DNA of 36,763 nt from positions 1 to 36,763 of the forward strand of contig JACPAV010000032.1 of the NCBI GenBank assembly GCA_016180645.1. The letters run 5' to 3'. Of this stretch, positions 22,380 through 35,669 are shown piece after piece. The translations under genes were made by a program, and so were the position numbers. Below the pieces are notes generated by a model. The model did not search any database. It was given only the letters and a program-made list of their open reading frames with translations, and was not told the DNA's origin. How positions within the stretch are numbered: the first letter of the stretch is position 1; every line of letters starts with the position of its first letter. This DNA comes from Nitrospirota bacterium (GTDB lineage: Bacteria; JACPQY01).

Positions 22380-22385
22380 TGAAGT

Positions 22386-22394
22386 ATTCTATCA
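22386..22394 (-). promoter_or_regulatory. extended -10 element for the M6 protease gene
   Basis: TG-A-TAGAAT, 6 nt before ATG 22379. Confidence 0.5.
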
Positions 22395-22398
22395 TGCG

Positions 22399-23298
22399 AT
22401 GCCGACTTTCAGCCTCTTCCTGGCCGGATTTCAAATACATGTTCACATGACACTGTGCTCCTCATGGCCGGAGATGAAACAACGATTCAGGCCGTTTCTC
22501 TCCCCACCTCGCGGAAAGCGTTTCCCCTCGCATCGCCAGCGATGGATCATCAGCGAAACGCTGCGCACCGTCCCGAATGAAGACCGGAGGGGCCGCGTGA
22601 TTCTTCCCACTCTCGCGTCAGACGATTCGACAGTGACCGTCCGCCACCCCAACTATCTGGGGGCCTTCGATCTCAAGACCCGCTCCGGCCACGCGTCCGT
22701 CAGCCCCACATTTCCTTCGTTCAGTTCCCTCGTGCGGGGGTTTCTCGCCACGGCTCTCCCACTGGACTCCGGCCTGATCCTGCACGCCGCCGCCATTTCG
22801 CTGAAGGGATCGGATGGCACGGTCGTATTCGCCGGGGCGTCCGGGAGCGGCAAGACGACCACCGCACGGCACTTTCTCAAGACCCGGACCCGCTATGTGA
22901 TCCTATCGGATGAACTGGTTGCGGTGCGTTTGAATCCCAAGCCACGAGCATTCGGTACACCCTTCTGGGGAGATCTTCGGTCGTCGATCGATCCGTCAAA
23001 GTCGCGCAATAATCTCTCTGCCCCACTCCGGAAGCTCATTTTCCTTGAAAAAGGGAGCCGAGACGAGCGCAGGCCTCTCACTCAAAGGGAGACCGCAGGC
23101 CGACTCCTGAAATGCACCCTCCTCCACAGTCGCTCAAAGACCGTTCTCAGCGGCGCCCTTTCCACAGCTCAGGCCATGGCCGGTTCATGCCCGGCGGAAT
23201 TGCTGACCTGGAAATCGCTCGACTACCTGACGGCGACAGCTGGAAAACTCGTGGAGGAGCGCGCACCCGCCGGGAGGCGAGTCAGGGCTTTTTCGTAA
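22399..23298 (+). CDS. HprK-related P-loop kinase
   Basis: LILHAAAI, FAGASGSGKTT, ILSDE, GTPFWG. ATG 22399 avoids overlap with the M6 gene (track start 22327). Confidence 0.8.
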   Translation: MPTFSLFLAGFQIHVHMTLCSSWPEMKQRFRPFLSPPRGKRFPSHRQRWIISETLRTVPNEDRRGRVILPTLASDDSTVTVRHPNYLGAFDLKTRSGHASVSPTFPSFSSLVRGFLATALPLDSGLILHAAAISLKGSDGTVVFAGASGSGKTTTARHFLKTRTRYVILSDELVAVRLNPKPRAFGTPFWGDLRSSIDPSKSRNNLSAPLRKLIFLEKGSRDERRPLTQRETAGRLLKCTLLHSRSKTVLSGALSTAQAMAGSCPAELLTWKSLDYLTATAGKLVEERAPAGRRVRAFS

Positions 23299-23464
23299 GG
23301 AGCTGCTGAAGGAGAAACTCTTCGTCCTTGGGAGCGAGGTCGAATTTGCGAGCGGTTTCGTGAATGATTTCGGTCAGGGGCTTGTTTGGAAATGCGGTTC
23401 GCTGTTCGGAGATCCACCGGAGGGCTTTCTCCATGGGATACGCACCGGGTTGCAGGTCCTTCAT
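23282..23464 (-). CDS. small helical hypothetical protein (60 aa)
   Basis: Follows the beta-barrel gene after 9 nt with an AGGGG RBS; KALRWISE...KFDLAPKDEEFL looks like a real helical protein. Confidence 0.7.
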   Translation of the reverse strand: MKDLQPGAYPMEKALRWISEQRTAFPNKPLTEIIHETARKFDLAPKDEEFLLQQLLTKKP

Positions 23465-23473
23465 GTCGGCCCC

Positions 23474-24856
23474 CTAAAAGGCGGCGCGCAGCGAGCTCTG
23501 CGCGGCGAAGACGGGCCTCGCGGCCTCGGGGTCGATGCGATTGAAAAACGCCCCCGCCGCGCCTCCAGGGATAAGGATCGAGCCGACCACGTCCAGAGAA
23601 AAGGACCGGGAGAAATCATGACGGATTCCCGCATCGGCTTCCACTCCCACAAAGACTTCACCCAGGGCGTTTCGCGGTTGAAGCACGGACGCCGCGGCAA
23701 GAGTGGTCGAAAGCTCCCAGTTCTCCATCCATCCATAATATACGCTCCCCTCGGCCACCGCCAAACCGCTTCGAACGATCGTGAACAGGCCCGCCTTCTC
23801 TCCCATGCCCTCGTCCAAGTTGTCGCCCACATCTCTGAGTTCGTTTTCCGTTAGAAGGAGCGTCTGACTCCGGGATTTTCCGGAATAGTGGAAGGCCGTG
23901 TTGCGCCCGTTTCGATCGTCGCCGTCATCCGGGCTGAGCAGAAGCGCGCCGACCATCCATCCTGATTCTCCGGCGGAAGCAGGTTGGCGCTGAATTTCTG
24001 TTGGCAAAGTCCCACGACTCCGCCCTTGACGTCCCCGCCCGGCCGCCATGTAGGCCTGAACCGCGCCGGCCAGATGAGTCTCGGTTTCTCCCGTGAAGGA
24101 GCCTCCGCGGGTTCCGCCCACCTGCGCGGCCAGATCCACTCCCATTTCCCGCCCCTCCATCACGCATCCGATGTTCGTCGTCTCCGTCAGGAGCCATGTA
24201 GGGCGTCCAACCCGTTGTCCATCGTACAATGCAATCAGCGCCGGATTCACGTTGAGTGCCTCGCCACCCTTGGAGGCCGATGCGGCGAACAGGAAAACGT
24301 CATGGTTGAAGTTGTTCCGGGTGAGGTCGATGCCCTCCGATGTTTGATCGGGGAGCTGGCCCACCAGCGCCTCGCCGGAATAGGATTCCGTCGACGTCCC
24401 CAGTCTCGCGGCGCCGACGTAGTAGCTCATGAAGAGGCGCGTGGGGTCGGAAAAATACTGGTATCCCGCGCGCAAATGGGATTTTTCGGAGACGCGCGCC
24501 TGGCTGTAAGCTTGGCGGTGCTTAAAGAACAGGACGTCGTTCGCCGCTTCCTTCGGAAGGAATTCCACCCGATTCCGGCTCCAAAGGTTGAGACCGAGTT
24601 CACCGTCGTAACGAACCCGCAGCGAATCGCCGATTCCGACTTCAACTCCCGGATCCAGGAACGTGGCAAAGTAGCCCACCGATTGGCCATCCGGCTGATA
24701 CAAGGCTTTCGATCCGTCGAAATCGCTGTCGCTCTTGATGACGGCCAGGTTTTGGAGGGAACCGCCGAATTCCACGGTCTTGCCTTCCGCGGCCGCGGAA
24801 AACGGCGCTCCTGCAAAGATAGCCGCAACGGCTGCCGCCCTCAGACGAGACCTCAT
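23474..24856 (-). CDS. outer-membrane beta-barrel (porin/alginate-export-like)
   Basis: Signal peptide from ATG 24856 (ATGA overlap with the GH5 stop; 24862 also possible), amphipathic beta-strands, C-terminal Phe. Confidence 0.75.
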   Translation of the reverse strand: MRSRLRAAAVAAIFAGAPFSAAAEGKTVEFGGSLQNLAVIKSDSDFDGSKALYQPDGQSVGYFATFLDPGVEVGIGDSLRVRYDGELGLNLWSRNRVEFLPKEAANDVLFFKHRQAYSQARVSEKSHLRAGYQYFSDPTRLFMSYYVGAARLGTSTESYSGEALVGQLPDQTSEGIDLTRNNFNHDVFLFAASASKGGEALNVNPALIALYDGQRVGRPTWLLTETTNIGCVMEGREMGVDLAAQVGGTRGGSFTGETETHLAGAVQAYMAAGRGRQGRSRGTLPTEIQRQPASAGESGWMVGALLLSPDDGDDRNGRNTAFHYSGKSRSQTLLLTENELRDVGDNLDEGMGEKAGLFTIVRSGLAVAEGSVYYGWMENWELSTTLAAASVLQPRNALGEVFVGVEADAGIRHDFSRSFSLDVVGSILIPGGAAGAFFNRIDPEAARPVFAAQSSLRAAF

Positions 24857-27147
24857 TTCCATTCGCCCAGTCCCCTGCCGTTCACGACTTTGCTGCCTTT
24901 GAAGAAGTAGCTCCAACCGAGATTCTCCTGGCCTTTGAGGGGCGGACGAATTCGCACCGTGTGCACGGTCCCCGGCTCGTCCGCCGTGGGGAAGTACAGG
25001 AGCGTCGTATTCTCGTGGTCGTACACGGCGTATCCATCGGACAACCACACGTAATACCCATCGGGGTAATAAAGTTCATAGGGGATGAAGATTTCCGTGG
25101 GAGACGTCGTTTCCTTGCTCTCGAATTTCAGTTCGAACTCACCCTCCGCGTTGACCACGCCCTTGTCCGGGTCGAAATAGTGCAATCCGGAATTGAACCG
25201 CATCGAGACGGGCTTCCCGCTCAGGAACGTGGGATGGGGGCGGCTGTAGGCTTCCTGCGATCTCGGATTGAGGCTCGGATCCACCACGGAAAAATCCTCG
25301 CTGTTCCAGCCGTCGCCCCGCTCAAACGTATTCTCGGAGGACCAGCACCACTGGATGTGGTTGAGAAGCATCGACTCGAACGCCTCGTAGTAGTTGTCGA
25401 GGATTTCCTTCGCTACGGCATAGTCGGATTCCACGGACTTGTTGATGCCGCCGTAGTTGTAGTACGTGCCGAATTCGCCGACGACCACGGGAATGTTTCC
25501 AAGCGAATGGGACGCGCGGGAGATCACGCCCTCGATGAGAGGCCGGTAGTCGCGGAACCGCTGTTCCTCCGGCTTGAAATCCCGCGGCGCGGAATTGAAA
25601 CCGGGCAGAGGGTAAATATCCGGATACCAATGCGGCGCATAAACCACTTGGTTCAGTCCTTCCGGTCGCGTGGGATTGATTGTGAACAACCCTTCGCCGC
25701 TCCCGCCGCCAGTCAACATGCCGAGGACCGTTTCCAGTCCCATCGCCGGCTCGATCCAGATCACGGCGTTCGGATCTTCATCCTGAATGGCCTTGCCGAC
25801 CTTCTCGTAGAAAGGGGTCATGTGAGCCTGTTCGAACCCGAGGTTCAGGCCGATGACGCCGAGCATGTCGACAAATTCGTAACCCCACTTCCGGCGTGTC
25901 TCCGGAGACGTATCGGGAGGCAGCAGCCGGGCCCCGGAAAGGAGCTGTGTAAAATCCTCGGCCAGTTTGGCGTCCGAAAAGACCGATTCGAGGAACTTCT
26001 TCACGGCGTCGAGGCTGCCCACGTTCATATAGATGGCCCCCGCCGTGAGCACGATGAACGCGCCAATGGGTTCGTTGATGATGTCGTATCCGATTACGTT
26101 GGGATAGTCCTTCACCCGCCGGACCACCTCCACCCACGAGCGCGTGTAGGCGTTCTGAAGGTAGTCCTCGATATTCTCGCCGTTCACCATCAAGTTTGGA
26201 AAAGCCGCCTTTCCGGCGAGGAGCGCGGCAAAGCTCCGCTGAACATCCACCGAGAGGGCACCGTTCACCCCCCAATTGGTCCACGGCAGCATGTCCGGCG
26301 TCTCGTTCACCTCGAAGGGGTATTTGGGAAGCAGGGGAGTGATGAAACCGAGCAGGCCACCGATGTCGAGATCGAAACCGCCGAATTTCTTGATGATCGA
26401 ATTGGCGGAAGCCACGAAGGCCGGATCGCTCAAGTTGCCCAGCATGCGCGCCGTTCCCCACGCGGGAGAATCCATGTCCTTCTCAGGCAGGATGGCCTTG
26501 ACGGCCCATCGGGGGGCGCCGTCGCCGCGAGTCGCGTTGTTGTACGGCGGCAGGAAGGCCACCGCCGTGGTGAGGAGGTCGGGGGGAATTCCCGGTGGGA
26601 GGAAGAAGGATAGACCCTTCACGAGGTCTTTCGCAGAGTCGATATCATTGTAGTAGGAGATGAGGTGGCGGCTGAAAATATCCTGGTGCATGTCCATCAG
26701 CACGTAGATGCGGTACTCGTTGGCCTTCTCCACGATTTTCGCCAGATAGTCGAGGTACCTTTCATCCACGGAATCCGCCGACACGGGCTGGATGCCTTCC
26801 CAATTCACGAGAAGGCGGATCGAGTTGAAACCGAGTTTGCGCATGAGCGCGAAATTCTTGTCCGCTTGATCGAGGGGGAAAGGTTTGTCCTCATAGGTCG
26901 GCATCTCGCTCAAAGGTTTCGTGCATTTCACGCCTGTCCTCACGAAGCACGGGTCGTCGTTGGACGGAAATTTCGTGCTCCCGCTCAGGTTGACGCCGTG
27001 CAGATAAACGTACCGTCCGTTCTCATCTTTGATGTAGTTCAAGTCCGTGTGAACCCGCGGCATCGGCCGGCTCTCGAAGACCGGTTTCTTCGAGCAGGAG
27101 AAGGACAGGATGACGATCGCGGCCAGCCAAAGATTCTTCCGAAGCAC
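24853..27147 (-). CDS. GH5 endoglycoceramidase-like lipoprotein with large insertions
   Basis: Lipobox SFSC; DENGRYVYLHGVN, GFNSIRL..WEG, DMHQD, DGAP.W, GYDIINEP, APHWY, VGEFG, C-terminal beta domain. Confidence 0.88.
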   Translation of the reverse strand: MLRKNLWLAAIVILSFSCSKKPVFESRPMPRVHTDLNYIKDENGRYVYLHGVNLSGSTKFPSNDDPCFVRTGVKCTKPLSEMPTYEDKPFPLDQADKNFALMRKLGFNSIRLLVNWEGIQPVSADSVDERYLDYLAKIVEKANEYRIYVLMDMHQDIFSRHLISYYNDIDSAKDLVKGLSFFLPPGIPPDLLTTAVAFLPPYNNATRGDGAPRWAVKAILPEKDMDSPAWGTARMLGNLSDPAFVASANSIIKKFGGFDLDIGGLLGFITPLLPKYPFEVNETPDMLPWTNWGVNGALSVDVQRSFAALLAGKAAFPNLMVNGENIEDYLQNAYTRSWVEVVRRVKDYPNVIGYDIINEPIGAFIVLTAGAIYMNVGSLDAVKKFLESVFSDAKLAEDFTQLLSGARLLPPDTSPETRRKWGYEFVDMLGVIGLNLGFEQAHMTPFYEKVGKAIQDEDPNAVIWIEPAMGLETVLGMLTGGGSGEGLFTINPTRPEGLNQVVYAPHWYPDIYPLPGFNSAPRDFKPEEQRFRDYRPLIEGVISRASHSLGNIPVVVGEFGTYYNYGGINKSVESDYAVAKEILDNYYEAFESMLLNHIQWCWSSENTFERGDGWNSEDFSVVDPSLNPRSQEAYSRPHPTFLSGKPVSMRFNSGLHYFDPDKGVVNAEGEFELKFESKETTSPTEIFIPYELYYPDGYYVWLSDGYAVYDHENTTLLYFPTADEPGTVHTVRIRPPLKGQENLGWSYFFKGSKVVNGRGLGEWK

Positions 27148-27153
27148 GGGCGG

Positions 27154-27181
27154 ATTATACGGTGGTTGAGCGATGAGTCAA
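27154..27181 (-). promoter_or_regulatory. sigma70 promoter of the GH5-barrel operon
   Basis: TTGACT, 16 nt, TATAAT, 6 nt, then GTG 27147. Confidence 0.65.
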
Positions 27182-28579
27182 AGCTTTTCGACCGGTTCCC
27201 CCTGGGGATTCGCCCGGGCTCCCCATACGGATCGTGGACGCATCACCTTCCGAAGCCTCGTCCATGCCAACGATCCGCTGATTCTCATCGAACTGAGGAC
27301 GACAGGCGACGAGTCCGGAGCGGAGCTCTCATTCCGCCCACAACAGGGCATCAGTCCCCGAATCGCCTGGGCGGAGAGGACGGTCGAGCCGTCCAATCTG
27401 CCGCCCCCGCCGACGTATTGGAAGCCGGGCGTGGAGGTTTTCCACCTCGAACGCTACTCCACCCATGACCTGGGCGGCGGAATTCGATTGCCGTTCGTCC
27501 ACGAGCTGGGCAATCTGACGTGGGCCCTTCACAACTGCTGGCGGCAATATCGCTATTCGATGGATGACGATATGCTGCGCGACCGGTTCTTCCCCCTGCT
27601 GCGCGGCAGTATCAATCTCTTTTTGCACATGCTCGAAGAAGGCCCGGACGGGAAACTTCACCTGCCACCGACGCATTCACCGGAATTCAATGACCCGGCG
27701 ATGGTCCCGGATGCAAACTATGCGCTCGGCCTGCTGCGCTGGGGGTTGTGGACGCTTCTGCAAACCACCTCGCTGCTCCGAATCGACGACGAACTTCAAC
27801 CCCGCTGGGAATCGACGCTGGAACGATTGACCGACTTCCCCCAGGATGAACACGGCTTGATGATCGGCCACGGGCAGCCCTTGGATAAAGGACACCGCCA
27901 TTTTTCACATCTGATATCGATCTTTCCGCTCCATCTGCTCAGGCCGGATGATCCGCGGGACCGTCCTCTGATCGAACGCTCCTTCCAGCACTGGCTCGAC
28001 CTGGGCGCGGGGACGCCGAATTTCAATGGCTACAGCTACACCGCCGCCTCATCCATACACAGTTCACTCGGCCACGGGGACGCGGCTCTTGAAATGCTAA
28101 GCGCGGCTCTGAAAATGTTCAGCCCGACCACGATGTATGTGGAATCGGCGCCCGTGATCGAAACGCCCCTTAGTGCAGCCGAATCGATTCACGACATGCT
28201 CCTCCAAAGCCACAACGGGATACTGCGTGTACTCCCCGCCGTCCCACGCGCCTGGCCGGACGTCGCGTTTCACGATCTGCTCGCCGAGGGCGCCTTCCTC
28301 GTCAGCGCAACAAGGAGAGAGGGCCGCACGCGCATGGTGCGGATTCGGAGCCTTGCCGGAGGGATCTGCCGTTTGAAGACCGATCTTCCCCGACCGCTCC
28401 ACCCCCTTGGACCGCCGGCCCTCTCCATTAGGGAAGAGGACGACGGGATTGTGGAATTGGACCTGAGGAAAGGAGAGGAGATCGTGCTATTCTCGGACCC
28501 GGATGTTCCTGAACTCGAGATCCAGCCGGTGGCGCCGCTTCGTTCGGACGACCGCTTCAACCCCTTCGGAGTGAAATAG
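27173..28579 (+). CDS. GH95-like (alpha-L-fucosidase family) protein, apparently truncated
   Basis: GNLTWALHN.W..YRY, HLPPTHSPE, HRHFSHL...FP, IETP, DMLLQSH...LPAVP..W, AEGAFLVSA; at 468 aa it is short for GH95. Confidence 0.75.
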   Translation: MSQSFSTGSPWGFARAPHTDRGRITFRSLVHANDPLILIELRTTGDESGAELSFRPQQGISPRIAWAERTVEPSNLPPPPTYWKPGVEVFHLERYSTHDLGGGIRLPFVHELGNLTWALHNCWRQYRYSMDDDMLRDRFFPLLRGSINLFLHMLEEGPDGKLHLPPTHSPEFNDPAMVPDANYALGLLRWGLWTLLQTTSLLRIDDELQPRWESTLERLTDFPQDEHGLMIGHGQPLDKGHRHFSHLISIFPLHLLRPDDPRDRPLIERSFQHWLDLGAGTPNFNGYSYTAASSIHSSLGHGDAALEMLSAALKMFSPTTMYVESAPVIETPLSAAESIHDMLLQSHNGILRVLPAVPRAWPDVAFHDLLAEGAFLVSATRREGRTRMVRIRSLAGGICRLKTDLPRPLHPLGPPALSIREEDDGIVELDLRKGEEIVLFSDPDVPELEIQPVAPLRSDDRFNPFGVK

Positions 28580-28593
28580 AAGGGACCGCACTC

Positions 28594-30051
28594 ATGATAG
28601 CGGAATGGAAGACACCCTTCTCGAACGGCATCGGGCCGCTGCTGGCGGCCGGGCTCGTCGCCGGAATGGTCTCCTGCTCGGACGGCGAGCGTCGAGCAGG
28701 AGACGCTGCTCGTCCGTCCGCGGAAGACCATTCCTGGCGATTCATTAGAGACGACGAGGGACGCGCCCTCATCCTGCACGGAACCAACATCTCCAATTCC
28801 AGCAAGGTCGACCGGCACCCCAGGGTGACGCAGGAGGCCGTGATGAGGCTCTCACGGGATTGGGGATTTAATTTTGTCCGGTATTTGATTTTCTGGGCCA
28901 AGATCGAACCGGAGGCCGGCGTCTACGATGATCTTTTTCTGGATGAGGTCGGGGAACGTCTGGACTGGTTCGCCGAAGCCGGGATCCAAGTGGTGCTCGA
29001 TATGCACCAAGACCTCTGGGGGCCCTCTCTCAACCGCTGTTTCCCGGAGGAGATTTACAACGGCGCCCCCTCTTGGGCGACGATCATCGACAGCCGGCCG
29101 TACGAATCCCATTGCAGCGTGAACTGGGGCCTGGACTACTTCTCGCCGGATATCTCCCGTGCCTTCGACAATTTCTGGGATTACGAGAAGCATCCCGAGT
29201 TGCAGGATCAATACGCCGCCATGTGGGTGCACGTAGTTCAACGGCTCAAGGATCATCCCGCCGTCCTCGGCTATGATCTTATGAACGAACCCTGGCACGG
29301 AACGGACTTCGGCCGGGAGAGGGAATTCGACGAAACCAAAATGCATGGATTCATCCAACGGATGATCATGGCCATCCGCGCCGCCGACAATGATTCATGG
29401 ATCTTCCTCGAACCCCGGGCGGGCATGATCAATCAGGGCCGGGCTTCCTACCTCCCGCCCTTTGTGGATCCGCGATCGGGGCCGCCACACCTCGTCTATT
29501 TCCCGCACATGTACCTCGTTTCGGTTGACTCCGGCGCGTATCGCTCCGGTGTTTCAGACTTCGCGGATTGGTTCGACAACCGGCGGGCCGAGGTCGAAAT
29601 CCTGAGAACTCCCCTGGCCGTGGGCGAGTGGAGTCCCAACGGCAATCCGGTATTCCTGCACGACCTCCTCAAGGGTTTGGATGACATGACGTCCGGTTGG
29701 GCCCAGTACCAATACGAAGGCGTCTTCGGGTCCGAAAACGACGGCATGCGCCGCGTGTATCCTCAACGTGTGGCCGGCACTCCCCATTCCTGGTATTACG
29801 ATCCATCCAGCCGCGAGTTCTCTCTGAGATTCGACGGCGATCGTGATATTTCCGCGCCGACCGTGATCTATGTGCCCGCGAAGGTTCATTTCCCGGAGGG
29901 TTGGGAGCTCCGAGTCGACGGCATCGATCCCTCCCGCTATCGGTTCGAATGGGACGAGCCAACCGAGACGCTTTCCCTGCGGTTCCTGGCCGGCGCGCCA
30001 CGGGAGCGAATCGTGCGGATAGGGCCGAAGGCCGGCGATGTGAAGAATTGA
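28594..30051 (+). CDS. GH5 endoglycoceramidase-like lipoprotein
   Basis: Lipobox MVSC; IRDDEGRALILHGTN, GFNFVR, DMHQD, GAPSW, GYDLMNEP, FPHMY, VGEW, RVYPQRVAGTP. Confidence 0.9.
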   Translation: MIAEWKTPFSNGIGPLLAAGLVAGMVSCSDGERRAGDAARPSAEDHSWRFIRDDEGRALILHGTNISNSSKVDRHPRVTQEAVMRLSRDWGFNFVRYLIFWAKIEPEAGVYDDLFLDEVGERLDWFAEAGIQVVLDMHQDLWGPSLNRCFPEEIYNGAPSWATIIDSRPYESHCSVNWGLDYFSPDISRAFDNFWDYEKHPELQDQYAAMWVHVVQRLKDHPAVLGYDLMNEPWHGTDFGREREFDETKMHGFIQRMIMAIRAADNDSWIFLEPRAGMINQGRASYLPPFVDPRSGPPHLVYFPHMYLVSVDSGAYRSGVSDFADWFDNRRAEVEILRTPLAVGEWSPNGNPVFLHDLLKGLDDMTSGWAQYQYEGVFGSENDGMRRVYPQRVAGTPHSWYYDPSSREFSLRFDGDRDISAPTVIYVPAKVHFPEGWELRVDGIDPSRYRFEWDEPTETLSLRFLAGAPRERIVRIGPKAGDVKN

Positions 30052-30063
30052 ATCCCAAGATCA

Positions 30064-30999
30064 ATGATCATTGATGTTCGCCGTGACAAGATGAGAAAAG
30101 GCCCTGCCCTCGGATACGAACCTTCCCACGCGGTCGGAAAAGCGCATGCCACCAAGGTCGATGGAAATTCAATCGCGTGGGCCGAAACGGGGCGAGGGAA
30201 ACCCCTCCTGTTGATCCATGGGGTGATGGATTCGCATCGTACCTGGCGCCGGCTTGCCCCGCTGCTCGCGAGGCGCTTCCGGGTTCTCATGCCGGATCTT
30301 CCCGGACACGGGTATTCCGGCCGTCCCGATGCACCCTACACACTGGCCTGGTACTCCAAAACCCTCAGCGCCTGGATGGAGGCGATTGGAGTCCGCCGCG
30401 CCCACGTTTGCGGACACTCCTTTGGAGGCGGAATCGCCCAGTGGATGCTCCTGGAGGACAGGAGGAGAGTGGATCGGCTGGCTTTGGTATCGTCCGGGGG
30501 CCTCGGACGAGAAGTCAGTTTCGGATTGCGCGTATCAAGCTTCCCCGGACTCGGTCCGCTATTGACGCCCCTCGTCTTGCGCCTGGGTTTGCCTCTCGCC
30601 CAGCGGATCACTCCGGGCGCTTTCGGCCATAACGAGCCTGATGAGATCGAACGACTCGTGAGGATGTGCCGCATTCCAGGCAGCGACCGGGCGTTCAATC
30701 GAACCGTCACGGGCGTCATCAACATCCTCGGACAACACGTCCAGTCCTTCTCGCGCGCAGGGGAGATCAAATCGCTCCCGCCCATGGCCTTGTTTTGGGG
30801 CGACAAGGACCCGATCTTGCCGATCTCCCACGCCCACGCCGCCTGCCGTCGATTGGAGCATTCCACCCTTTCGGTCTACCCCGGCGTCGGCCACTACCCT
30901 CATCTGGATGAACCCAACCGATTGGCGGCGGAACTGGGCACGTTCTTGACGGATCCGAAACGCCGGTGCGCACGCCTGAGGATGGGCGATTTCCGTTGA
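30064..30999 (+). CDS. alpha/beta-fold hydrolase
   Basis: LLIHG, DLPGHG.S, GHSFGG, WGDKD, GHYPH; the start may be ATG 30091. Confidence 0.92.
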   Translation: MIIDVRRDKMRKGPALGYEPSHAVGKAHATKVDGNSIAWAETGRGKPLLLIHGVMDSHRTWRRLAPLLARRFRVLMPDLPGHGYSGRPDAPYTLAWYSKTLSAWMEAIGVRRAHVCGHSFGGGIAQWMLLEDRRRVDRLALVSSGGLGREVSFGLRVSSFPGLGPLLTPLVLRLGLPLAQRITPGAFGHNEPDEIERLVRMCRIPGSDRAFNRTVTGVINILGQHVQSFSRAGEIKSLPPMALFWGDKDPILPISHAHAACRRLEHSTLSVYPGVGHYPHLDEPNRLAAELGTFLTDPKRRCARLRMGDFR

Positions 31000-31023
31000 A
31001 ACCCGTCCCATTTCCAATAGAAT
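30996..31023 (+). promoter_or_regulatory. sigma70 promoter of the SSS symporter
   Basis: TTGAAA, 16 nt, TAGAAT, 7 nt, then GTG 31031. Confidence 0.55.
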
Positions 31024-31030
31024 CCGCAAC

Positions 31031-32683
31031 GTGACCACGATTCATTTGGCCTGGGTCGATTGGCTCGTCATTGCCATCTACTTCGCGTTCATCATCGCCA
31101 TCGGGTTCTACCTCAAGCGATTTACGAAAACGGGGGACGACTTCTTCCTCGCCGGGCGAAAGAACAGCGCATGGGTCGCGGGACTCGCCTTCCTTTCGGC
31201 CAACCTCGGCGCGCTCGAAATCCTCGGATGGACCGGCGCCACGGTGAAGTACGGCATGTTCGTGGCCCACTTCTACTGGATCGGCGCGGTCCCCGCGATG
31301 CTTTTCCTCGGCCTCTATATGATGCCGTTTTACTACAGCAGCAAGATCCACTCGATCCCCGGATACCTCAAACTGAGATTCGACGAGAAAACGCGGGTCC
31401 TGAACGCACTGTCCTTCGCCGTGATGACGGTCCTCATGAGCGGGATCAACATGTATCTCATGGCGCTCGTCTTTCAGATTTTCCTCGGATGGAACTTCGA
31501 CGCCTGTCTGTGGATCTCCGCCATTACCGTGGCCTGTTACATCACGATGGGGGGGCTGCTCTCCGCGATTTTCACCGAGACGATCCAATTCTTCCTCATC
31601 TGGTTCGGGCTGTTTCTGGTCGCCATCCTCGGCATCGTGGAAACTCGCGGCGAACTGCTGACCACCGTGCCCGAGGCCATGCGCTCGCTGTGGGCCACCT
31701 CCGCCGATCCTTCGATGAATCCCATGGGGGTGACCTGGCTCGGCATCGCCGTCGGCCTTGGATTCGTCCTCTCGTTCGGCTACTGGACGACCGACTTTCT
31801 CATCGTCCAGCGGGCTTTTTCCGCGAAGGACCTCCGAACCGCGCAGATGTGCCCCGTGATAGCGTCCTTCTTCAAGATGGCGCTCCCGATGATCGTCGTC
31901 GGGGCCGGGCTGGTCGCCTGGAAACTGGGGCAATCGGGACAACTCACGCTCTTGACCAATGCCGCCGGCGATCCCAATTACGACTCCGCCCTGCCCCTGC
32001 TCCTTGCGCGATACTATCCGCACGGCCTGATGGGCCTCGGCATCACGGCGCTCATGGCCGGATTCATGGCGGGCCAGGCCGGCAACATCAGCGCCCTTAA
32101 CACGGTATGGACGTACGACATTTACCGGGCCGTGCTCAATCGCAACGCCTCGGACCAGCATCTCCTGTGGATGGGGCGCGTGGCCACGCTCGTGGGAATC
32201 GTGCTCAGCATCGGGGCGGCCTACTGGGCACGACAGTTTCCGACGATCATGGACTACATCCAGGCGATCTTTTCGTGGGTGAACGCTCCGCTCTTCGCCA
32301 CGATGCTCCTCGGAATGTTCTGGAAGCGGACCACCTCCGCGGGAGCGTTCTACGGATTGCTGGCAGGGATGGGGGCTTCGTTCCTCATGTTTCTCGGTCT
32401 CAAGTTCGGCTGGTTCTCGGGCCAATGGCTGACCTTTTCCACGCACGCGAGCGATATGAGCAATAATCTTTGGAGGGCGTTCTGGGCGTGGATCATCTGT
32501 TTCACGGCCACCATCGCCATCAGCGCCGTCACGAAACCAAAGCCGGACGCCGAATTGGAAGGGCTCGTGAAGGCCCTGACGAAAACCGTCCGCGTAGGGG
32601 AGACGCCGCTTCTTTCCCGGCCCGGATTCTGGGCCGTTATTTCATGCGTGATCCTCGTCGTACTGAACGTGTGGTTCTGGTGA
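31031..32683 (+). CDS. sodium:solute symporter (SSS), sugar/inositol-type
   Basis: DFFLAGR, SANLGA.E, YL..RF, GGL, YWTTDFLIVQR, many TM helices. Confidence 0.93.
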   Translation: MTTIHLAWVDWLVIAIYFAFIIAIGFYLKRFTKTGDDFFLAGRKNSAWVAGLAFLSANLGALEILGWTGATVKYGMFVAHFYWIGAVPAMLFLGLYMMPFYYSSKIHSIPGYLKLRFDEKTRVLNALSFAVMTVLMSGINMYLMALVFQIFLGWNFDACLWISAITVACYITMGGLLSAIFTETIQFFLIWFGLFLVAILGIVETRGELLTTVPEAMRSLWATSADPSMNPMGVTWLGIAVGLGFVLSFGYWTTDFLIVQRAFSAKDLRTAQMCPVIASFFKMALPMIVVGAGLVAWKLGQSGQLTLLTNAAGDPNYDSALPLLLARYYPHGLMGLGITALMAGFMAGQAGNISALNTVWTYDIYRAVLNRNASDQHLLWMGRVATLVGIVLSIGAAYWARQFPTIMDYIQAIFSWVNAPLFATMLLGMFWKRTTSAGAFYGLLAGMGASFLMFLGLKFGWFSGQWLTFSTHASDMSNNLWRAFWAWIICFTATIAISAVTKPKPDAELEGLVKALTKTVRVGETPLLSRPGFWAVISCVILVVLNVWFW

Positions 32684-32687
32684 GGCT

Positions 32688-32903
32688 ATGACCGAAGAAA
32701 AAGCCATGCTGTCGGTGTGGGCGTGGGTGGGGATCATCCTGCTCGTGTACGGCGCGATCGTAACCGGCTCGGGCGTCTACTATGCAATCGGCTCCCCGGC
32801 CCCCACGGTACTGGGTGAACTCAACCCCGCCGCCTGGTGGGGCTGTATCATGCTCATCGCCGGCGCCGCCCTCTGGTTCCTCGGCCGAAGACCGGCCTCC
32901 TAA
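32688..32903 (+). CDS. small two-TM membrane protein, probable SSS partner
   Basis: GAGG RBS, starts 4 nt after the SSS stop, two hydrophobic helices. Confidence 0.8.
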   Translation: MTEEKAMLSVWAWVGIILLVYGAIVTGSGVYYAIGSPAPTVLGELNPAAWWGCIMLIAGAALWFLGRRPAS

Positions 32904-32904
32904 A

Positions 32905-32973
32905 GACGCACCCTGAAGGGTGCGCCTACCAAGACCTACCCCGATCCGGTAGGCGCAGGCTTCAGCCTGCGTC
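32905..32973. repeat. REP doublet (REPIN-like, GTAG family) between convergent genes
   Basis: - copy GGTAGGCGCACCCTTCAGGGTGCGTC (32930-32905); + copy GGTAGGCGCAGGCTTCAGCCTGCGTC (32948-32973). Confidence 0.85.
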
Positions 32974-32985
32974 CGAACACGCGGC

Positions 32986-34824
32986 CTAGAACGTCAGGCC
33001 CAGCATCAGGGAAAGAATCCAGCGGTTGTAATCGCGCTGCGTTCCGGTGTCCCGGTTGACGGTGTAGTTGAAGCCACTATCGAGGTACAACCGGCTGGCG
33101 AAGGACTTGTACAGGCCCGTTCCAATCCGGAAGGTTTTTTCGCTGCCCTCTTCCACCGTCGCCACCGATCCCGTCTGCTGATCGGTGCCGCTTTGAGCCG
33201 GAGCCGGCGCGGGGGTGCGGTCCCAAGCCTTGTGATGGTACCCCGTGAATACGCTCCATTGGATGTCCGCCGGGAGCAAGACCCCGAGGCTTAGATCCGA
33301 CCGGAATCCGTTGTAGGCAAACTGGTTGGTTGAATCTTTCACCGGCTCATTCCGATCGTAGCCCAGTTCGATCCGGCTCTGCAGAAGTCCCTGGATGATA
33401 TCGACCGAGAGAAAGGAAAAGGCGCCGGTGTTCACGATGGTGAGGGCCTGCGCGATGCTGGAGTCCGTTCGGACGTAATGGTCATATCGCCCGGGAATGA
33501 CGATGCCCAACGCGGCGCGATCCCCCAGAACGCGGCTCACGCCCGCTGAGCCGTTCACTTCGATGTAGGACGGCGCTTTTCGGAAGAGCAGCACCCCCGC
33601 CCCCGCATGGGCGTCGAACCGGTAGTTCTCGTTGTCGAAGTAGCGAAGGGCTGAACCGTCGAGCATGGCGAAGGTCATGTCGTATTTGCGAATGTCGCTG
33701 TTCTCCCCTTCGAAATGTAGGGTTTGACTCGCCGAAAGATCCGCCGTGAGGCGCGATTCGGGAGTGGGCAGCGTCCACACCGCGCCGTCCAGGGCGAGTT
33801 GGGTTCGAGTCCCGCGGAATCCCTCTTCCAAATTCAGCGGACTGAGGATCACGTTCGAGTCCTCCTGCACACCGAGACCGGTGGTCACCTTCCAATTCTT
33901 CTCCTCCAGGGCCTTCCGCTTCCGCGCCTGTTGCAAGACAACGAGATGCTCCTCCGCCATCTCCTTCATTCTGGGATCGGTGGCATTGTCCCGAACGGAT
34001 TGGAATCGCGCGGTCGCTTCGGCGAAGCCTTCCTGTTTGTACGCCACGAGGCCGAGGTAGTAGTCGATTTCGGCGTCGGTTTGCGGATTCATGCCTTTGG
34101 CGCGGTTCAGATGTTCCTTCGCATGCTCCATATTGCCGGAGAGATACGCGGACACGCCGGCGTAGTAGTAGACCTGCCGCACATTGGGATCCGCCGAGAT
34201 CGCGGCATCAAGATGTGAATGAGCCGATGCGTACTGGCCGGAATAGTAATCGGAGAGGCCTTTCGAATACTCGGTCTCGAAGACCTCGTTGAAACCGCCG
34301 GGCCCGAGCTGCGAGCGCTGCTCTTTGAGGACCAATTGCTTGCCCACACCTTGAACGACTGCGGGGAGACGATCCGTTTGCGTCGGAGAAGTAACCACCG
34401 TGACCGACGATCCACCGGACCGCAAATTCACCATTTTCACGGTGACGGACCACGAGCCCGCGCCACCCGCCACCGTTCCCAGGAACAAGCGATCCGCCGG
34501 GAGGCTCTCCACCATTTGGAAGATGCAGGTCGTGTCATTCTTGCAGCCGTAGATGCGGTTCACATAGTCCGGCCCCGCCGCCTGAGTGAATTGGGCCGGC
34601 GTGACGTAGTTCACGGGTCCGAGTTGCCCGAGGCCATTCACAAACGATGTGGTGGCGAGGTCCGCCACCGCCTGATCCACTCCCTGCCCGCGGAAGTTCA
34701 GGACGGCGATCCGGATGGCGGCCTGAGCCAAGGCGTTGGAAACGCCCGTGAAGAGTGATGAGTAAAGGGTGATGAGAAATAGAATCGCCATCACGCACGC
34801 CCGGGGCTTCACATCCCTCATCAC
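32986..34824 (-). CDS. outer-membrane protein: N-terminal alpha/beta domain + TPRs + C-terminal beta-barrel (Slam/DUF560-like)
   Basis: Signal peptide; IAVLNF...C...C domain; TPRs; barrel starting GLGVQEDSNV and ending LMLGLTF. Confidence 0.75.
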   Translation of the reverse strand: MMRDVKPRACVMAILFLITLYSSLFTGVSNALAQAAIRIAVLNFRGQGVDQAVADLATTSFVNGLGQLGPVNYVTPAQFTQAAGPDYVNRIYGCKNDTTCIFQMVESLPADRLFLGTVAGGAGSWSVTVKMVNLRSGGSSVTVVTSPTQTDRLPAVVQGVGKQLVLKEQRSQLGPGGFNEVFETEYSKGLSDYYSGQYASAHSHLDAAISADPNVRQVYYYAGVSAYLSGNMEHAKEHLNRAKGMNPQTDAEIDYYLGLVAYKQEGFAEATARFQSVRDNATDPRMKEMAEEHLVVLQQARKRKALEEKNWKVTTGLGVQEDSNVILSPLNLEEGFRGTRTQLALDGAVWTLPTPESRLTADLSASQTLHFEGENSDIRKYDMTFAMLDGSALRYFDNENYRFDAHAGAGVLLFRKAPSYIEVNGSAGVSRVLGDRAALGIVIPGRYDHYVRTDSSIAQALTIVNTGAFSFLSVDIIQGLLQSRIELGYDRNEPVKDSTNQFAYNGFRSDLSLGVLLPADIQWSVFTGYHHKAWDRTPAPAPAQSGTDQQTGSVATVEEGSEKTFRIGTGLYKSFASRLYLDSGFNYTVNRDTGTQRDYNRWILSLMLGLTF

Positions 34825-35669
34825 ACTTCACTCTTTACCTTTTTGAGGATCCATTGGCCCACGGTGTCAAAAGCTTCCGGCCGTCCAATCTCATGAAAAG
34901 GCTCGTGCTTGAACTCCGGCCAGGAATTGAGGGTCTTATCCGAGTGCCCGACGTTGGCGAAGAAGGCCTTCGCGGCGTCCACGCTCACAATTCGATCGCT
35001 CTCTCCCAGAATCATGAGGAGGGGAAATTTCCAGCCGGCGCCGTCCGCCTGCACCCGATCCATGGCGGCAACCATCTCGGTAAACAGCCGGGTGCTGATC
35101 CGCCGGTGGACGAGCGGATCATCCACGTACGCCCTCACCTCCGCCTCGTCCCGCGAAAGGAGCTTCGGATCCAACTCATTGTCCATCGTCAGGTCCGGCA
35201 TCAGCTTTGAAAGGCCGCGGCCGACGGCCGCTTTCAGGGCCGGAACTTTGACGGCAATCCCCAGCGCCGGCGAGGAGAGAATGACGCCGCGCGGCGAATG
35301 CGATCCGGTCTGGAACAAAGACCAGTGGGAGACGATCAACCCTCCCAGGCTGTGGCCCAGCACGAAAAGTGGGATACCCTTGATCCACTTGGGAATGAAT
35401 TCGAGAAACGCGTTTATGTCTTCTCCGTAAGTTCTAAGTGAATCGACACAACCACGCCTGCCTTCGGTACGGCCATGCCCGCGCAGGTCCATGGCAAAGA
35501 CCTCGATATTGGATCGGACCATCGCGTGGGCAAACTCTTTGTAGCGGCCGGAGTGCTCCCCCAATCCATGGACCACCACGAGCGCGCAGCACGGTTTTTC
35601 GGACCTGAACCTGCGGTAGAAGATCCGCGTCTTGTCCTTGGCGAGGAAATGCTCCGAAAATTCCGTCAC
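34821..35669 (-). CDS. lysophospholipase/monoacylglycerol lipase-like alpha/beta hydrolase
   Basis: VHGLGEHSGRY, DLRGHG, GHSLGG, SRD...Y..DPL, HE. Confidence 0.92.
   Translation of the reverse strand: MTEFSEHFLAKDKTRIFYRRFRSEKPCCALVVVHGLGEHSGRYKEFAHAMVRSNIEVFAMDLRGHGRTEGRRGCVDSLRTYGEDINAFLEFIPKWIKGIPLFVLGHSLGGLIVSHWSLFQTGSHSPRGVILSSPALGIAVKVPALKAAVGRGLSKLMPDLTMDNELDPKLLSRDEAEVRAYVDDPLVHRRISTRLFTEMVAAMDRVQADGAGWKFPLLMILGESDRIVSVDAAKAFFANVGHSDKTLNSWPEFKHEPFHEIGRPEAFDTVGQWILKKVKSEV

Follow-up and report, generated by a model that had tools for sequence, protein, structure and literature searches.

Which genes of a locus that holds two GH5 lipoproteins, an outer-membrane β-barrel and a sugar symporter belong together, and what do they do? 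The initial annotation had proposed two divergent arms working as one multi-gene system for scavenging glycolipids. An ORF check of the window, the whole stretch of 36,763 nucleotides analysed, confirmed the two arms and all eight ORFs at the coordinates given below, and Pfam agreed with this layout:

23282-23464, minus arm: ORF of 60 aa, no family found by Pfam
23474-24862, minus strand: 18-strand outer-membrane β-barrel with an AlgE/OprD-like fold, unannotated family (AF2 model, Foldseek)
24853-27147, minus strand: GH5L, 764-aa GH5 lipoprotein, predicted Sgl1/EGCrP2-like exo-β-glycosidase (Pfam, structure, conservation)
27154-27181, minus strand: σ70-like promoter match TTGACT-16-TATAAT (11/12), pattern match only, just upstream of the GH5L start
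27173-28579, plus strand: GH95 remnant ORF (Pfam GH95 domains, partial)
28594-30051, plus strand: GH5S, 485-aa lipoprotein, endoglycoceramidase II-like GH5, island passenger (Pfam, sequence match)
30064-30999, plus strand: α/β hydrolase, 311 aa, island passenger (Pfam Abhydrolase)
30996-31023, plus strand: σ70-like promoter match TTGAAA-16-TAGAAT (10/12), pattern match only, just upstream of the SSS gene
31031-32683, plus strand: SGLT-type Na+/solute symporter of the SSS family, 550 aa (PF00474/SSF)
32688-32903, plus strand: sm71, 71-aa membrane protein, predicted symporter accessory subunit (gene order, complex model)
23465-32985, strand not applicable: island of about 9.5 kb, missing at the matching site of a same-family genome (G001)

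The σ70-like pattern search found 5 sites in the region against 2.4 expected. The match at 27154-27181 overlies the first codons of the GH95 remnant ORF, which lies 25 bp from the GH5L start.

A conserved four-gene core on a genomic island

In G001, the sole same-family genome compared for the island site, homologues of 32986-34824 and 23282-23464 lie on one contig only 26 nt apart, with the order of the outer flanks kept. Public contigs bridge both the left island junction and the GH5L/GH95 junction. The cassette described below is located on this 9.5-kb island and is split here into two divergent units. The island also holds an endoglycoceramidase II-like lipoprotein, an α/β hydrolase and a dead GH95 gene.

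Gene order was surveyed in 29 related loci, 27 of them with upstream sequence and 2 cut at the barrel. In all 27, GH5L immediately precedes the barrel on the same strand; the proposed conservation of the GH5-barrel pair was thus upheld, whereas that of the wider cluster was not, as the GH95, GH5S and hydrolase genes stand beside the cassette in 0 of 29 loci. Among 301 evenly drawn Myxococcota genomes, which are related and hence not independent, the barrel is present in 41, GH5L in 42 and both in 41, with GH5L alone in one and the barrel alone in none. The cassette is found in 3 of 41 relatives of the window's genome (G000 included), and its flanking genes vary between loci.

The suggested linkage of a porin to a Na+ symporter holds in part. 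Sequence of at least 1.5 kb beyond the barrel made 24 loci scorable, and in 14 of these a sugar importer follows the barrel: an orthologous SSS symporter (61-81% identity, starting 19-71 nt after the barrel) in 11, a distant SSS in two and a MalK-type ABC sugar importer in one. Two further loci carry the SSS orthologue elsewhere within the locus, while in 8 of the 24 no symporter was seen beside the pair. In 13 of 13 loci, the SSS orthologue has an sm71 homologue as its next gene downstream. The conserved core consists of four genes, encoding GH5L, the barrel, the SSS symporter and sm71, and represents an uncharacterised set; the view of both arms as one system of eight conserved genes was not supported. 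No SusC, SusD or TonB-dependent receptor domain was detected by Pfam in any window ORF scanned, as had been anticipated.

The 60-aa ORF, which had been counted as the small protein of the barrel arm, was likewise discarded as a member: its homologue occurs at the empty site of G001, none was found in the 29 related loci, and it has no Pfam match. GH5S contains Pfam Cellulase and Glyco_hydro_5_C domains and matches the Rhodococcus endoglycoceramidase II (EGCase II, GH5_28, 2OSW) over residues 49-465 (8.3e-70), thus over its full length. Both catalytic glutamates are kept (N231-E232-P233, nucleophile E345), and E345 shares the alignment column in which the E351S mutant chain 2OSX departs from the wild type. 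Differently from EGCase II, GH5S is a lipoprotein, and it stands outside the conserved cassette. No full-length GH5S-type gene was found in the 29 loci, where weak GH5S matches overlie GH5L-type genes; homologues with 36-38% identity exist elsewhere in G000, G001 and G025. The gene annotated as GH95-like does have GH95 domains by Pfam, yet the catalytic domain spans only profile positions 169-377 of 408, followed by the C-terminal domain, and residues 113-439 align to 449-789 of the 803-residue GH95 enzyme 2RDY. To judge by its sequence, it is a dead remnant, truncated at the 5′ end, in which only the latter half of the catalytic (α/α)6 domain is left together with the C-terminal domain. Further GH95-like matches were found neither in G000, G001, G002 and G025 nor in the 29 loci. 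The α/β hydrolase (Abhydrolase_1, 9.2e-31) is generic and MhpC/PcaD-like, with all NCBIfam matches below their cut-offs; it shows no evident signal peptide and has no homologue in the 29 loci.

GH5L resembles fungal sterylglucosidases

GH5L comprises a TIM barrel with a cap and a C-terminal β-sandwich, and Pfam assigns Cellulase (GH5, 1.4e-19) and Glyco_hydro_5_C (1.3e-12). Its nearest solved relatives by sequence are Sgl1/EGCrP2 of Cryptococcus neoformans (7LPO, 1.2e-31) and SglA of Aspergillus fumigatus (8EXD, 7.5e-26), with about 24-25% identity over the aligned residues. The AF2 model (pLDDT 82, pTM 0.86) matched SglA with Z 38.9 over 500 residues and Sgl1 with Z 30.7 over 528 in the VIA fold comparison. 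Z was 35.2 for EGCase II, which has the same two-domain architecture, with 413-431 residues aligned to endoglycoceramidases; cellulases reached at most 26. Foldseek matched a sterylglucosidase at 2e-29, although TM-scores against Sgl1 were only 0.58-0.61, which we count against the function proposed below. The placement of both GH5 proteins in the glycolipid-hydrolase part of the family, and not among cellulases, was thereby supported, for GH5S by its match to EGCase II (8e-70) and for GH5L by sequence and fold. Names found in the bacterial GH5L clade were only "cellulase family glycosylhydrolase", "hypothetical" or generic BglC, with no characterised enzyme among them.

GH5L, too, keeps the NEP motif and nucleophile originally noted: N358-E359-P360 and E558 are invariant in 15 of 15 homologues, as are C18, K59, H154, H506, Y508, W600, W614 and E617. 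Residues of Sgl1 named in PMC8497620 were carried onto GH5L through the alignment of the two sequences. Sgl1 K47, H142, D144, N269 and E270 correspond to K59, H154, D156, N358 and E359, and E520, W570, the cap residue W584 and E587 to E558, W600, W614 and E617; D156, present in the window protein, is unlike the other mapped residues absent from the invariant list. By this alignment, GH5L keeps the sugar-binding residues of Sgl1 and SglA and the capping tryptophan which limits those enzymes to one sugar. Because GH5L shares this cap with Sgl1, its predicted activity is the removal of a single hexose from monoglycosyl lipids, and the earlier proposal of a core enzyme releasing glycans from ceramides was not supported. 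The cleft of EGCase II, in contrast, is open, and this enzyme liberates intact oligosaccharides (PMC8497620).

The N-termini of GH5L and GH5S each consist of a hydrophobic segment ending in a cysteine, read from the sequence with no predictor behind the lipoprotein call. As hardly any linker follows this putative lipid anchor, the active site of GH5L would sit at a membrane surface. In Sgl1, sterol specificity arises from a buried hydrophobic cavity. The fungal sterylglucosidases Sgl1/EGCrP2 and SglA belong to subfamily GH5_12. The Cryptococcus EGCrP sequences are placed in GH5_12 by PMC3526467; as a yeast flavonoid β-glucosidase is included there as well (PMC3526467), the aglycone of GH5L need not be a lipid.

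The coupled outer-membrane barrel

The barrel starts at ATG 24862 or at ATG 24856, and the latter overlaps the GH5L stop codon as ATGA, in agreement with the coupling first suspected; the barrel is predicted to be translationally coupled to GH5L. It has no Pfam or NCBIfam match, and 0 of 14 family members match any barrel family in Pfam, including Alginate_exp, at E<=1. The family is compact, with 148 representatives at E<=1e-3 and 90 at E<=1e-30 among 1.84 billion. The last residue is phenylalanine, and the AF2 model (pLDDT 75, pTM 0.76) has 18 strands. AlgE (3RBH, 3.3e-16) is the best Foldseek match, followed by chitoporin (7VU2, 6e-12), MOMP and Occ/OprD (Occ channels at 1e-11 and weaker), and the nearest atlas clusters carry Alginate_exp. 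AlgE, OprD/Occ and chitoporin are monomeric, substrate-specific channels with likewise 18 strands; the barrel differs from these channels in lacking an HMM-level relation to Pfam Alginate_exp or OprD and in being always paired with a GH5 lipoprotein, with no adjoining alginate genes. A polysaccharide exporter has this AlgE-like fold of 18 strands as well, an observation that counts against a salvage function. OprD-type channels possess a constriction loop, L7. We infer that its place is taken in the barrel by the long loop joining strands 13 and 14, which is strongly conserved.

The symporter and its predicted small subunit

The symporter (PF00474, 1.2e-51; TIGR00813, 221.6 bits against a cut-off of 184) shares the SSS fold family with vSGLT (2XQ2, 2.6e-48) and human SGLT1 (2.8e-44), its best solved relatives, and with the also close SGLT2. 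We take N64, Q69, Y87, E88 and S91 to be the sugar-binding positions of vSGLT; N64 alone is identical in the alignment, the others reading E63, F81, Y82 and G85 in the symporter. As most of these positions differ, the transported solute is uncertain.

The small protein sm71 has two hydrophobic segments, with W11, L18, G22, W50 and W51 invariant in its alignment (A4), and matched no known family in Pfam, NCBIfam or a further search. The modelled complex with the symporter gave an ipSAE of 0.66 (0.66, 0.67 and 0.65 in three runs), compared with 0.00 for the best control; in the calibration, 116 of 157 solved complexes attained the ipSAE mark, as did 2 of 215 mismatched pairs. The pLDDT of the partner was at least 74 and the runs agreed in at least 92% of contacts. 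The model supports binding of sm71 to the symporter. SGLT2 has a small partner, MAP17. The predicted binding of sm71 is similar, although sm71 differs by its two hydrophobic segments and the lack of a known-family match. A galactokinase gene follows the SSS-sm71 pair in 3 of 13 loci and none is present in the window; the hexose released and imported may be glucose or galactose.

Proposed function and alternative explanations

We regard it as moderately probable that the four core genes form a self-contained salvage cassette, independent of TonB, for β-glycosides whose hydrophobic aglycone bears one sugar. GH5L, attached to the outer membrane through a lipid anchor and a very short linker, would cut a single β-linked hexose off the lipid as a retaining GH5 enzyme with E359 as acid/base and E558 as nucleophile, and Trp614 would exclude a second sugar as Trp584 does in Sgl1. 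The co-translated 18-strand barrel would serve as a dedicated outer-membrane path, for the released hexose if the enzyme faces outwards or for the amphipathic glycoside if it faces the periplasm. The SGLT-type symporter with its 71-aa subunit would then bring the hexose in together with Na+.

The gene order and the importer linkage would fit equally well to the use of soluble β-glycosides, in which the barrel is a glycoside or oligosaccharide porin comparable to chitoporin and the aryl-glucoside and sucrose porins, GH5L a periplasm-facing exo-β-glucosidase and the symporter the route of sugar uptake. The substrates would be small glycosides from plants or fungi (flavonoid, aryl, alkyl) or short β-glucans, in accordance with the flavonoid β-glucosidase of GH5_12 (PMC3526467) and with the high rank of chitoporin 7VU2 (6e-12) in the structural comparison of the barrel. 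We nevertheless consider this rather unlikely: every closest solved relative of GH5L acts on lipids, its alignment with sterylglucosidases is about 70-100 residues longer than that with endoglycoceramidases, in keeping with a shared cap, and the near-linkerless anchor would set the active site at the membrane surface.

A role in the turnover or quality control of glycolipids in the cell's own envelope with sugar recycling, like that of fungal EGCrP1 and Sgl1, would agree with the membrane anchoring of GH5L and with fungal homologues working on endogenous glycolipids (PMC8497620); PMC10202945 moreover describes myxobacterial acid-labile sterol conjugates of unknown nature, with steryl glucosides discussed as candidates. 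Strong oxidosqualene cyclase matches were, however, limited to 2 of the 28 genomes from which the cassette loci come, and G000, G001 and G002 had none, which we count for a foreign rather than an own sterol as substrate. With the patchy distribution (41/301 Myxococcota, 3/41 relatives), the varying flanks, the location on an island missing from a same-family genome, and a dedicated channel and high-affinity type importer that better suit nutrient capture, such a housekeeping role appears improbable. In exopolysaccharide operons, such as those for alginate, cellulose and Pel, an exporter is encoded together with a hydrolase or lyase. An AlgE-like exporter with GH5L as periplasmic trimming hydrolase would conform to this pattern, to AlgE as the best structural match and to the Alginate_exp of the nearest atlas clusters. 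Yet Pfam revealed no conserved adjoining synthase, co-polymerase or TPR scaffold in the flanks of 13 loci, importers rather than synthases follow the barrel, the Alginate_exp HMM matched 0 of 14 barrels at E<=1, and GH5L carries an exo-glycosidase one-sugar cap; we judge secretion very improbable.

Gram-negative porin-hydrolase-transporter operons are exemplified by chitoporin with chitinolytic genes and by the glycoporins ScrY and BglH. With these and with the Bacteroidota SusC/D loci, the cassette shares the logic of an envelope hydrolase, an outer-membrane passage and an inner-membrane importer. It has neither TonB-dependent transporter nor SusD, and it differs from those systems by its barrel family and its glycolipid-type GH5 hydrolase, for which the sequence predicts a lipid anchor and translational coupling with the barrel. 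With Sgl1 and SglA, GH5L has in common the two catalytic residues, those that bind glucose and the capping tryptophan, at an identity of about 24-25%; these are intracellular fungal enzymes, whereas GH5L is bacterial, predicted to be lipid-anchored and exported, and has genes for its own outer-membrane channel and a sugar importer beside it. For the salvage cassette, candidate substrates are steryl glucosides, monohexosyl-ceramides and monogalactosyl-diacylglycerol from foreign or detrital membranes. With the four-gene set, the bacterium can probably cleave the sugar from such single-sugar glycolipids and take it up.

Gene content of the locus

The initial annotation proposed a two-arm system for glycolipid scavenging at 23474..32903 that lacks SusC, SusD and a TonB receptor. 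All ORFs it named were recovered in the window:

23282-23464, minus strand, ORF of 60 aa, no Pfam or NCBIfam match
23474-24862, minus strand, outer-membrane barrel protein of 462 aa with signal peptide and C-terminal Phe, no Pfam or NCBIfam match
24853-27147, minus strand, large GH5 lipoprotein GH5L (764 aa), Pfam Cellulase and Glyco_hydro_5_C
27173-28579, plus strand, GH95-like ORF, two Pfam GH95 domains
28594-30051, plus strand, small GH5 protein GH5S (485 aa), Pfam Cellulase and Glyco_hydro_5_C
30064-30999, plus strand, α/β hydrolase, Pfam Abhydrolase_1
31031-32683, plus strand, Na+/solute symporter SSS, Pfam SSF
32688-32903, plus strand, sm71, ORF of 71 aa with two hydrophobic segments, no Pfam or NCBIfam match

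The absence of SusC, SusD and TonB receptor domains held for every scanned window ORF; the SusC-like TonB-dependent transporter and the SusD-like lipoprotein of a Bacteroidota-type polysaccharide utilisation locus were accordingly not found among them. Both GH5 proteins carry an N-terminal hydrophobic segment ending in Cys, and the stop codon of the GH5L gene overlaps a possible start codon (ATG) of the barrel gene in the sequence ATGA.

GH5L resembles sterylglucosidases

GH5L scored 71.1 bits with PF00150 (cut-off 23.5). Besides the catalytic pair, GH5 enzymes conserve Arg, His, His, Tyr and Trp residues, and R111, H154, N358, E359, H506, Y508, E558 and W600 of GH5L were invariant in 15/15 homologues, as was C18 at the end of the hydrophobic segment. 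The catalytic motifs were thus kept as initially described, with N358-E359 and E558 in GH5L and N231-E232-P233 and E345 in GH5S.

The closest solved relatives of GH5L by sequence were two fungal sterylglucosidases, Sgl1 from Cryptococcus neoformans (PDB code 7LPO, 1.2e-31) and SglA from Aspergillus fumigatus (8EXD, 7.5e-26), followed by Rhodococcus endoglycoceramidases (EGCase II, 4e-13). An AlphaFold model built from 15 homologues (pLDDT 82, pTM 0.86) gave the same order in Foldseek, with Sgl1 and SglA at about 1e-29, endoglycoceramidases at about 1e-22 and cellulases at 1e-10; the best 11 matches were Sgl1 or SglA throughout. In VIA alignments, 500-534 residues were aligned to sterylglucosidases as compared to 413-431 to endoglycoceramidases, and these 70-100 extra residues fit a shared cap above the TIM barrel. 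In enzymes of the Sgl1/EGCrP type, this cap region surrounds a hydrophobic cavity that is buried and Y-shaped.

Structural comparison of the GH5L model with solved enzymes (VIA-align)
Compared with SglA: Z 38.9, rmsd 2.7 Å, 500 residues
Compared with EGCase II: Z 35.2, rmsd 2.8 Å, 428 residues
Compared with Sgl1: Z 30.7, rmsd 3.3 Å, 528 residues
Compared with cellulases: Z 26 or less, about 285 residues

For Sgl1, PMC8497620 names Glu270 and Glu520 as catalytic residues, Lys47, His142, Asp144, Asn269, Trp570 and Glu587 as glucose-binding residues, and Trp584 as a cap that excludes a second sugar. In the sequence alignment, these catalytic residues fall on E359 and E558 of GH5L, the glucose-binding residues on K59, H154, D156, N358, W600 and E617, and the capping tryptophan on W614 (7LPO chain numbers are the paper numbers plus 1). 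Except for D156, the mapped residues are listed as invariant among the 15 bacterial homologues. GH5L thus shares with Sgl1 and SglA the catalytic pair, the mapped glucose-binding residues, the capping tryptophan and the closest match in sequence and fold. As the Sgl1 residues including the capping tryptophan are kept, the prediction for GH5L is a retaining exo-β-glycosidase with room for one sugar rather than an endoglycoceramidase.

The initial annotation matched the motifs of both GH5 proteins to endoglycoceramidases/EGCrP; GH5L falls with the Sgl1/EGCrP type and GH5S with the endoglycoceramidases. GH5S (88.3 bits with PF00150, cut-off 23.5) matched Rhodococcus EGCase II (2OSW) at 8.3e-70 over residues 49-465 and kept its catalytic residues, E345 aligning with the position altered in 2OSX (E351S), as well as its C-terminal domain (GH5_C match, 4.8e-15). 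This similarity over the full length makes GH5S a convincing endoglycoceramidase II relative, as judged from sequence. Neither protein is an endoglycoceramidase I equivalog: with NCBIfam NF051847, whose cut-off is 700 bits, GH5L reached only 69.8 and GH5S only 143.4 bits. Clustered at 90% identity, the GH5L family comprises 153 or more clusters, which are unnamed or called just 'cellulase family glycosylhydrolase', 'hypothetical' or by a generic BglC name.

The genome of the window also encodes GH5 paralogues on contigs C29 (L010 5335-7107) and C57 (L011 7309-9183), both of which scored for GH5_C in a six-frame genome search; Pfam on called ORFs listed GH5_C for the C29 copy only. The C29 copy adjoins ORFs with matches to fragments of Tn3-type transposases, whereas acyl-CoA dehydrogenase, SDR and enoyl-CoA hydratase genes neighbour the one on C57; no barrel gene was found beside either.

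An outer-membrane barrel family tied to GH5L

The AF2 model of the barrel protein, built from 14 homologues, has 18 strands (pLDDT 75, pTM 0.76). Its best Foldseek match was AlgE (3.3e-16, TM 0.59-0.65), followed by chitoporin, Campylobacter MOMP and Occ/OprD channels. Language-model neighbour clusters carry Alginate_exp, a likeness at the language-model level only. The Pfam scan assigned the window protein to no family, and 0/14 members of the barrel family matched Pfam barrel families including Alginate_exp (PF13372) at E ≤ 1, so that the same 18-strand fold as in AlgE is modelled here without a PF13372 match. A profile search of 1.84 billion representatives delimited a compact family, with 148 of them matching at E ≤ 1e-3, a number that falls to 123 when the threshold is 1e-10 and to 90 when it is 1e-30. 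The best conserved stretch is the long loop between strands 13 and 14 (approximately residues 308-362), in which Y324-S325-G326 and N346-L347-D348-E349 are invariant in the alignment of 14 homologues. This loop, modelled at low confidence, may line or gate the pore.

A pattern search of GTDB species representatives yielded 29 loci with a barrel homologue, labelled as Myxococcota, Myxococcales or Anaeromyxobacteraceae (17), Deltaproteobacteria (2), 'Proteobacteria/Pseudomonadota' (5) and 'bacterium' (5). Two of these loci end at the barrel; in each of the other 27, which contain upstream sequence, tblastn located a GH5L homologue directly upstream on the same strand, so that the pairing of GH5 and barrel noted initially proved to be conserved. 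In one of the compared genomes, G025, the two members of the pair show 58% and 41% identity to their counterparts in the window, and their ORFs likewise overlap by 4 nt.

The linkage was also seen in a sample of 301 Myxococcota genomes, which were evenly drawn around a centre genome picked for carrying the cassette of GH5L, barrel, SSS and sm71. The barrel profile (E ≤ 1e-10) matched in 41 and the GH5L profile (E ≤ 1e-60) in 42 of them, and all 41 barrel genomes were among the 42 GH5L genomes; since these genomes are kin, the counts do not represent independent events. Where both coordinates were listed, the two genes were mostly adjacent, and a few pairs were split over separate short contigs (e.g. 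in G180 and G282). Some Myxococcota genomes contain two to four pairs. Around the pair in 13 loci, 73 flanking ORFs were scanned with Pfam, and no other conserved neighbour emerged.

Some genomes (G089, contig C52; G145, C19; G125, C15) have an additional GH5L-like gene of shorter length after the barrel. At one locus, L023, a GH84 gene and another GH5 gene lie upstream of the cassette and a PIG-L deacetylase gene lies downstream.

A symporter with a predicted small partner

SSS scored 176.3 bits with PF00474 and 221.6 bits with TIGR00813 (cut-off 184), and its nearest solved relatives were vSGLT (2.6e-48), SGLT1 (2.8e-44) and SGLT2. At the columns of vSGLT N64, Q69, Y87, E88 and S91, which we take to be the sugar-coordinating positions, SSS has N58 (the same residue), E63, F81, Y82 and G85, in an alignment that may shift locally.

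In 24 loci, 1.5 kb or more of sequence is available beyond the barrel. Of these, 11 have an SSS orthologue (61-81% identical) that starts 19-71 nt downstream of the barrel, and two have a distant SSS 158-194 nt downstream. One locus (L018) has a MalK-type ABC sugar importer in the symporter's place, two have the orthologue elsewhere in the locus, and in eight none was found. Three loci carry a galactokinase gene after the SSS-sm71 pair.

A homologue of sm71 follows the SSS orthologue in 13/13 loci, in one of which it is cut by the locus end. The modelled complex of SSS and sm71 reached an ipSAE of 0.66 (runs 0.66, 0.67 and 0.65) compared with 0.00 for the best control, a mark attained by 116/157 solved complexes and 2/215 mismatched pairs. 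With a partner pLDDT of at least 74, contact agreement of at least 92% and an interface on SSS residues 9-31, 180-204 and 327-336, the model supports binding of sm71 to SSS. The nearest atlas clusters of sm71 are unnamed proteins of 71-72 aa (score 0.89), which serve as a lead only.

Genes outside the conserved unit

The initial annotation treated eight genes as one system. This view did not hold across genomes: GH5S, the α/β hydrolase and the GH95-like ORF have no counterpart gene in the 29 loci, where GH5S gave merely weak matches positioned over GH5L-type genes. The TPR protein and the second hydrolase encoded beyond sm71 likewise lack counterparts there, and these genes, together with GH5S and the first hydrolase, were rejected as conserved partners.

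The GH95-like ORF is a remnant. Of the 408 profile positions of the catalytic domain it retains only 169-377, together with the C-terminal domain; its residues 113-439 correspond to residues 449-789 of the GH95 protein 2RDY, which is 803 residues long, and no match to the GH95 N-terminal domain was found in it. With half a catalytic domain and no N-terminal domain match, a working fucosidase was ruled out, and its initial placement in the system was dropped. Using this ORF as query, no second GH95 piece was detected in the window's own genome or in G001, G002 and G025. A gap of 25 bp lies between the ORF and the start codon of GH5L, and a near-consensus promoter match for GH5L (TTGACT-16-TATAAT) lies over the start of the ORF.

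The 60-aa ORF, which starts 9 nt past the barrel stop codon, has neither a signal peptide nor a family. Its homologue in G001, the only genome of the same family, is 53% identical (L052 11773-11937) and adjoins the TPR protein gene. This small protein had been counted as a partner of the barrel; as G001 lacks the barrel and no homologue occurs in the 29 loci, it was rejected as a component.

The cassette lies on an island

In G001, a gap of 26 nt separates the homologue of 32986-34824 from that of the 60-aa ORF, and the order of the outer flanks is unchanged. This empty site identifies 23465-32985 as an island relative to G001, nearly identical to the span initially proposed for the system. 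The lineage is thinly sampled: of 40 relatives, one belongs to the same family and 39 are related at the domain level only. No direct repeats were found at the island ends.

On its right side, the island is bounded by the spacer between sm71 and the next gene (32900-32985), a palindromic dispersed repeat with arms at 32905-32930 and 32948-32973 (85% complementary). The window's genome contains 57 matches to this repeat, some of which form tandem arrays of about 80 nt (contigs C25 and C52). The DNA of the window occurs in four groundwater metagenome runs, all from one study. Both the left junction and the junction of GH5L and GH95 are spanned by public contigs; at the right end these break in the repeat, where summed contig depth rises about four- to five-fold. 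These contigs are DNA from one study, three of four from possible source samples, and confirm the assembly only.

To the right of the island, 32986-34824 (minus strand) encodes a 612-aa protein with a signal peptide, TPR repeats and a long C-terminal part without a family. The start of its gene is overlapped by a lysophospholipase-like alpha/beta hydrolase gene (34821-35669, minus strand), and both are kept in the same order in G001. To the left lie genes for an M6 (InhA-like) metallopeptidase (20469-22379, minus strand) and a P-loop protein (22327-23298, plus strand) weakly matching HprK-related and ScmC families, as well as an IS200-like transposase ORF (14126-15064, minus strand).

Proposed function

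Membranes are very rich in steryl glucosides, glucosyl- and galactosyl-ceramides and galactolipids. We propose that anchored GH5L would act at the outer membrane and take the one hexose off glycolipids or other hydrophobic β-glycosides, that the dedicated barrel would then pass either the sugar or the glycoside, and that the two-part symporter of SSS and sm71 would import the hexose. A bolder version, which we consider rather improbable, is that GH5L and the barrel work together in the outer membrane as a single machine that extracts monoglycosyl lipids (steryl glucosides, monohexosyl-ceramides, the galactolipid MGDG) directly from membranes of foreign or detrital origin. Not just the sugar but the amphipathic glycolipid would be taken up or presented by the barrel, in a TonB-independent, lipid-directed counterpart of SusC/D, and the hexose would enter through an SGLT-type symporter needing a previously unrecognised 71-aa subunit.

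Other readings of the cassette are the use of soluble glycosides and the turnover of the cell's own glycolipids. With respect to the latter, a strong oxidosqualene-cyclase match occurred in only 2 of the 28 genomes with a cassette locus and in none of G000 (the window's own genome), G001 and G002, which makes own sterol conjugates unlikely as a general substrate. Sterol conjugates that await identification are nevertheless described for myxobacteria (PMC10202945). Polysaccharide export would suit the AlgE-like fold of the barrel; unlike for AlgE, however, no conserved synthesis or export genes lie beside it, neither in the flanks of 13 loci nor among the scanned window ORFs.

Uptake of a hexose released from hydrophobic β-glycosides, as proposed here, follows a familiar logic of porin, hydrolase and importer; new are an enzyme of the glycolipid type, a barrel family that lacks annotation and goes with GH5L, and the small symporter partner. 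No bacterial cassette of such kind was found described in the open-access literature and bioRxiv on GH5_12, sterylglucosidase/EGCrP2, and steryl glucosides with myxobacteria.

The four genes form a compact and testable unit, which occurs in roughly one of every seven Myxococcota species sampled as well as in a few other lineages. They provide a functional lead for a large GH5L clade annotated only as 'cellulase family', define an outer-membrane channel family that has no Pfam model, and suggest, with sm71, that SGLT-type transporters of bacteria may have a small subunit. Should the substrate be confirmed, steryl glucoside removal and glycolipid analysis would be possible uses of the enzymes. 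For the myxobacteria, GH5L is a candidate enzyme acting on their sterol conjugates, though most carriers lack sterol synthesis genes.
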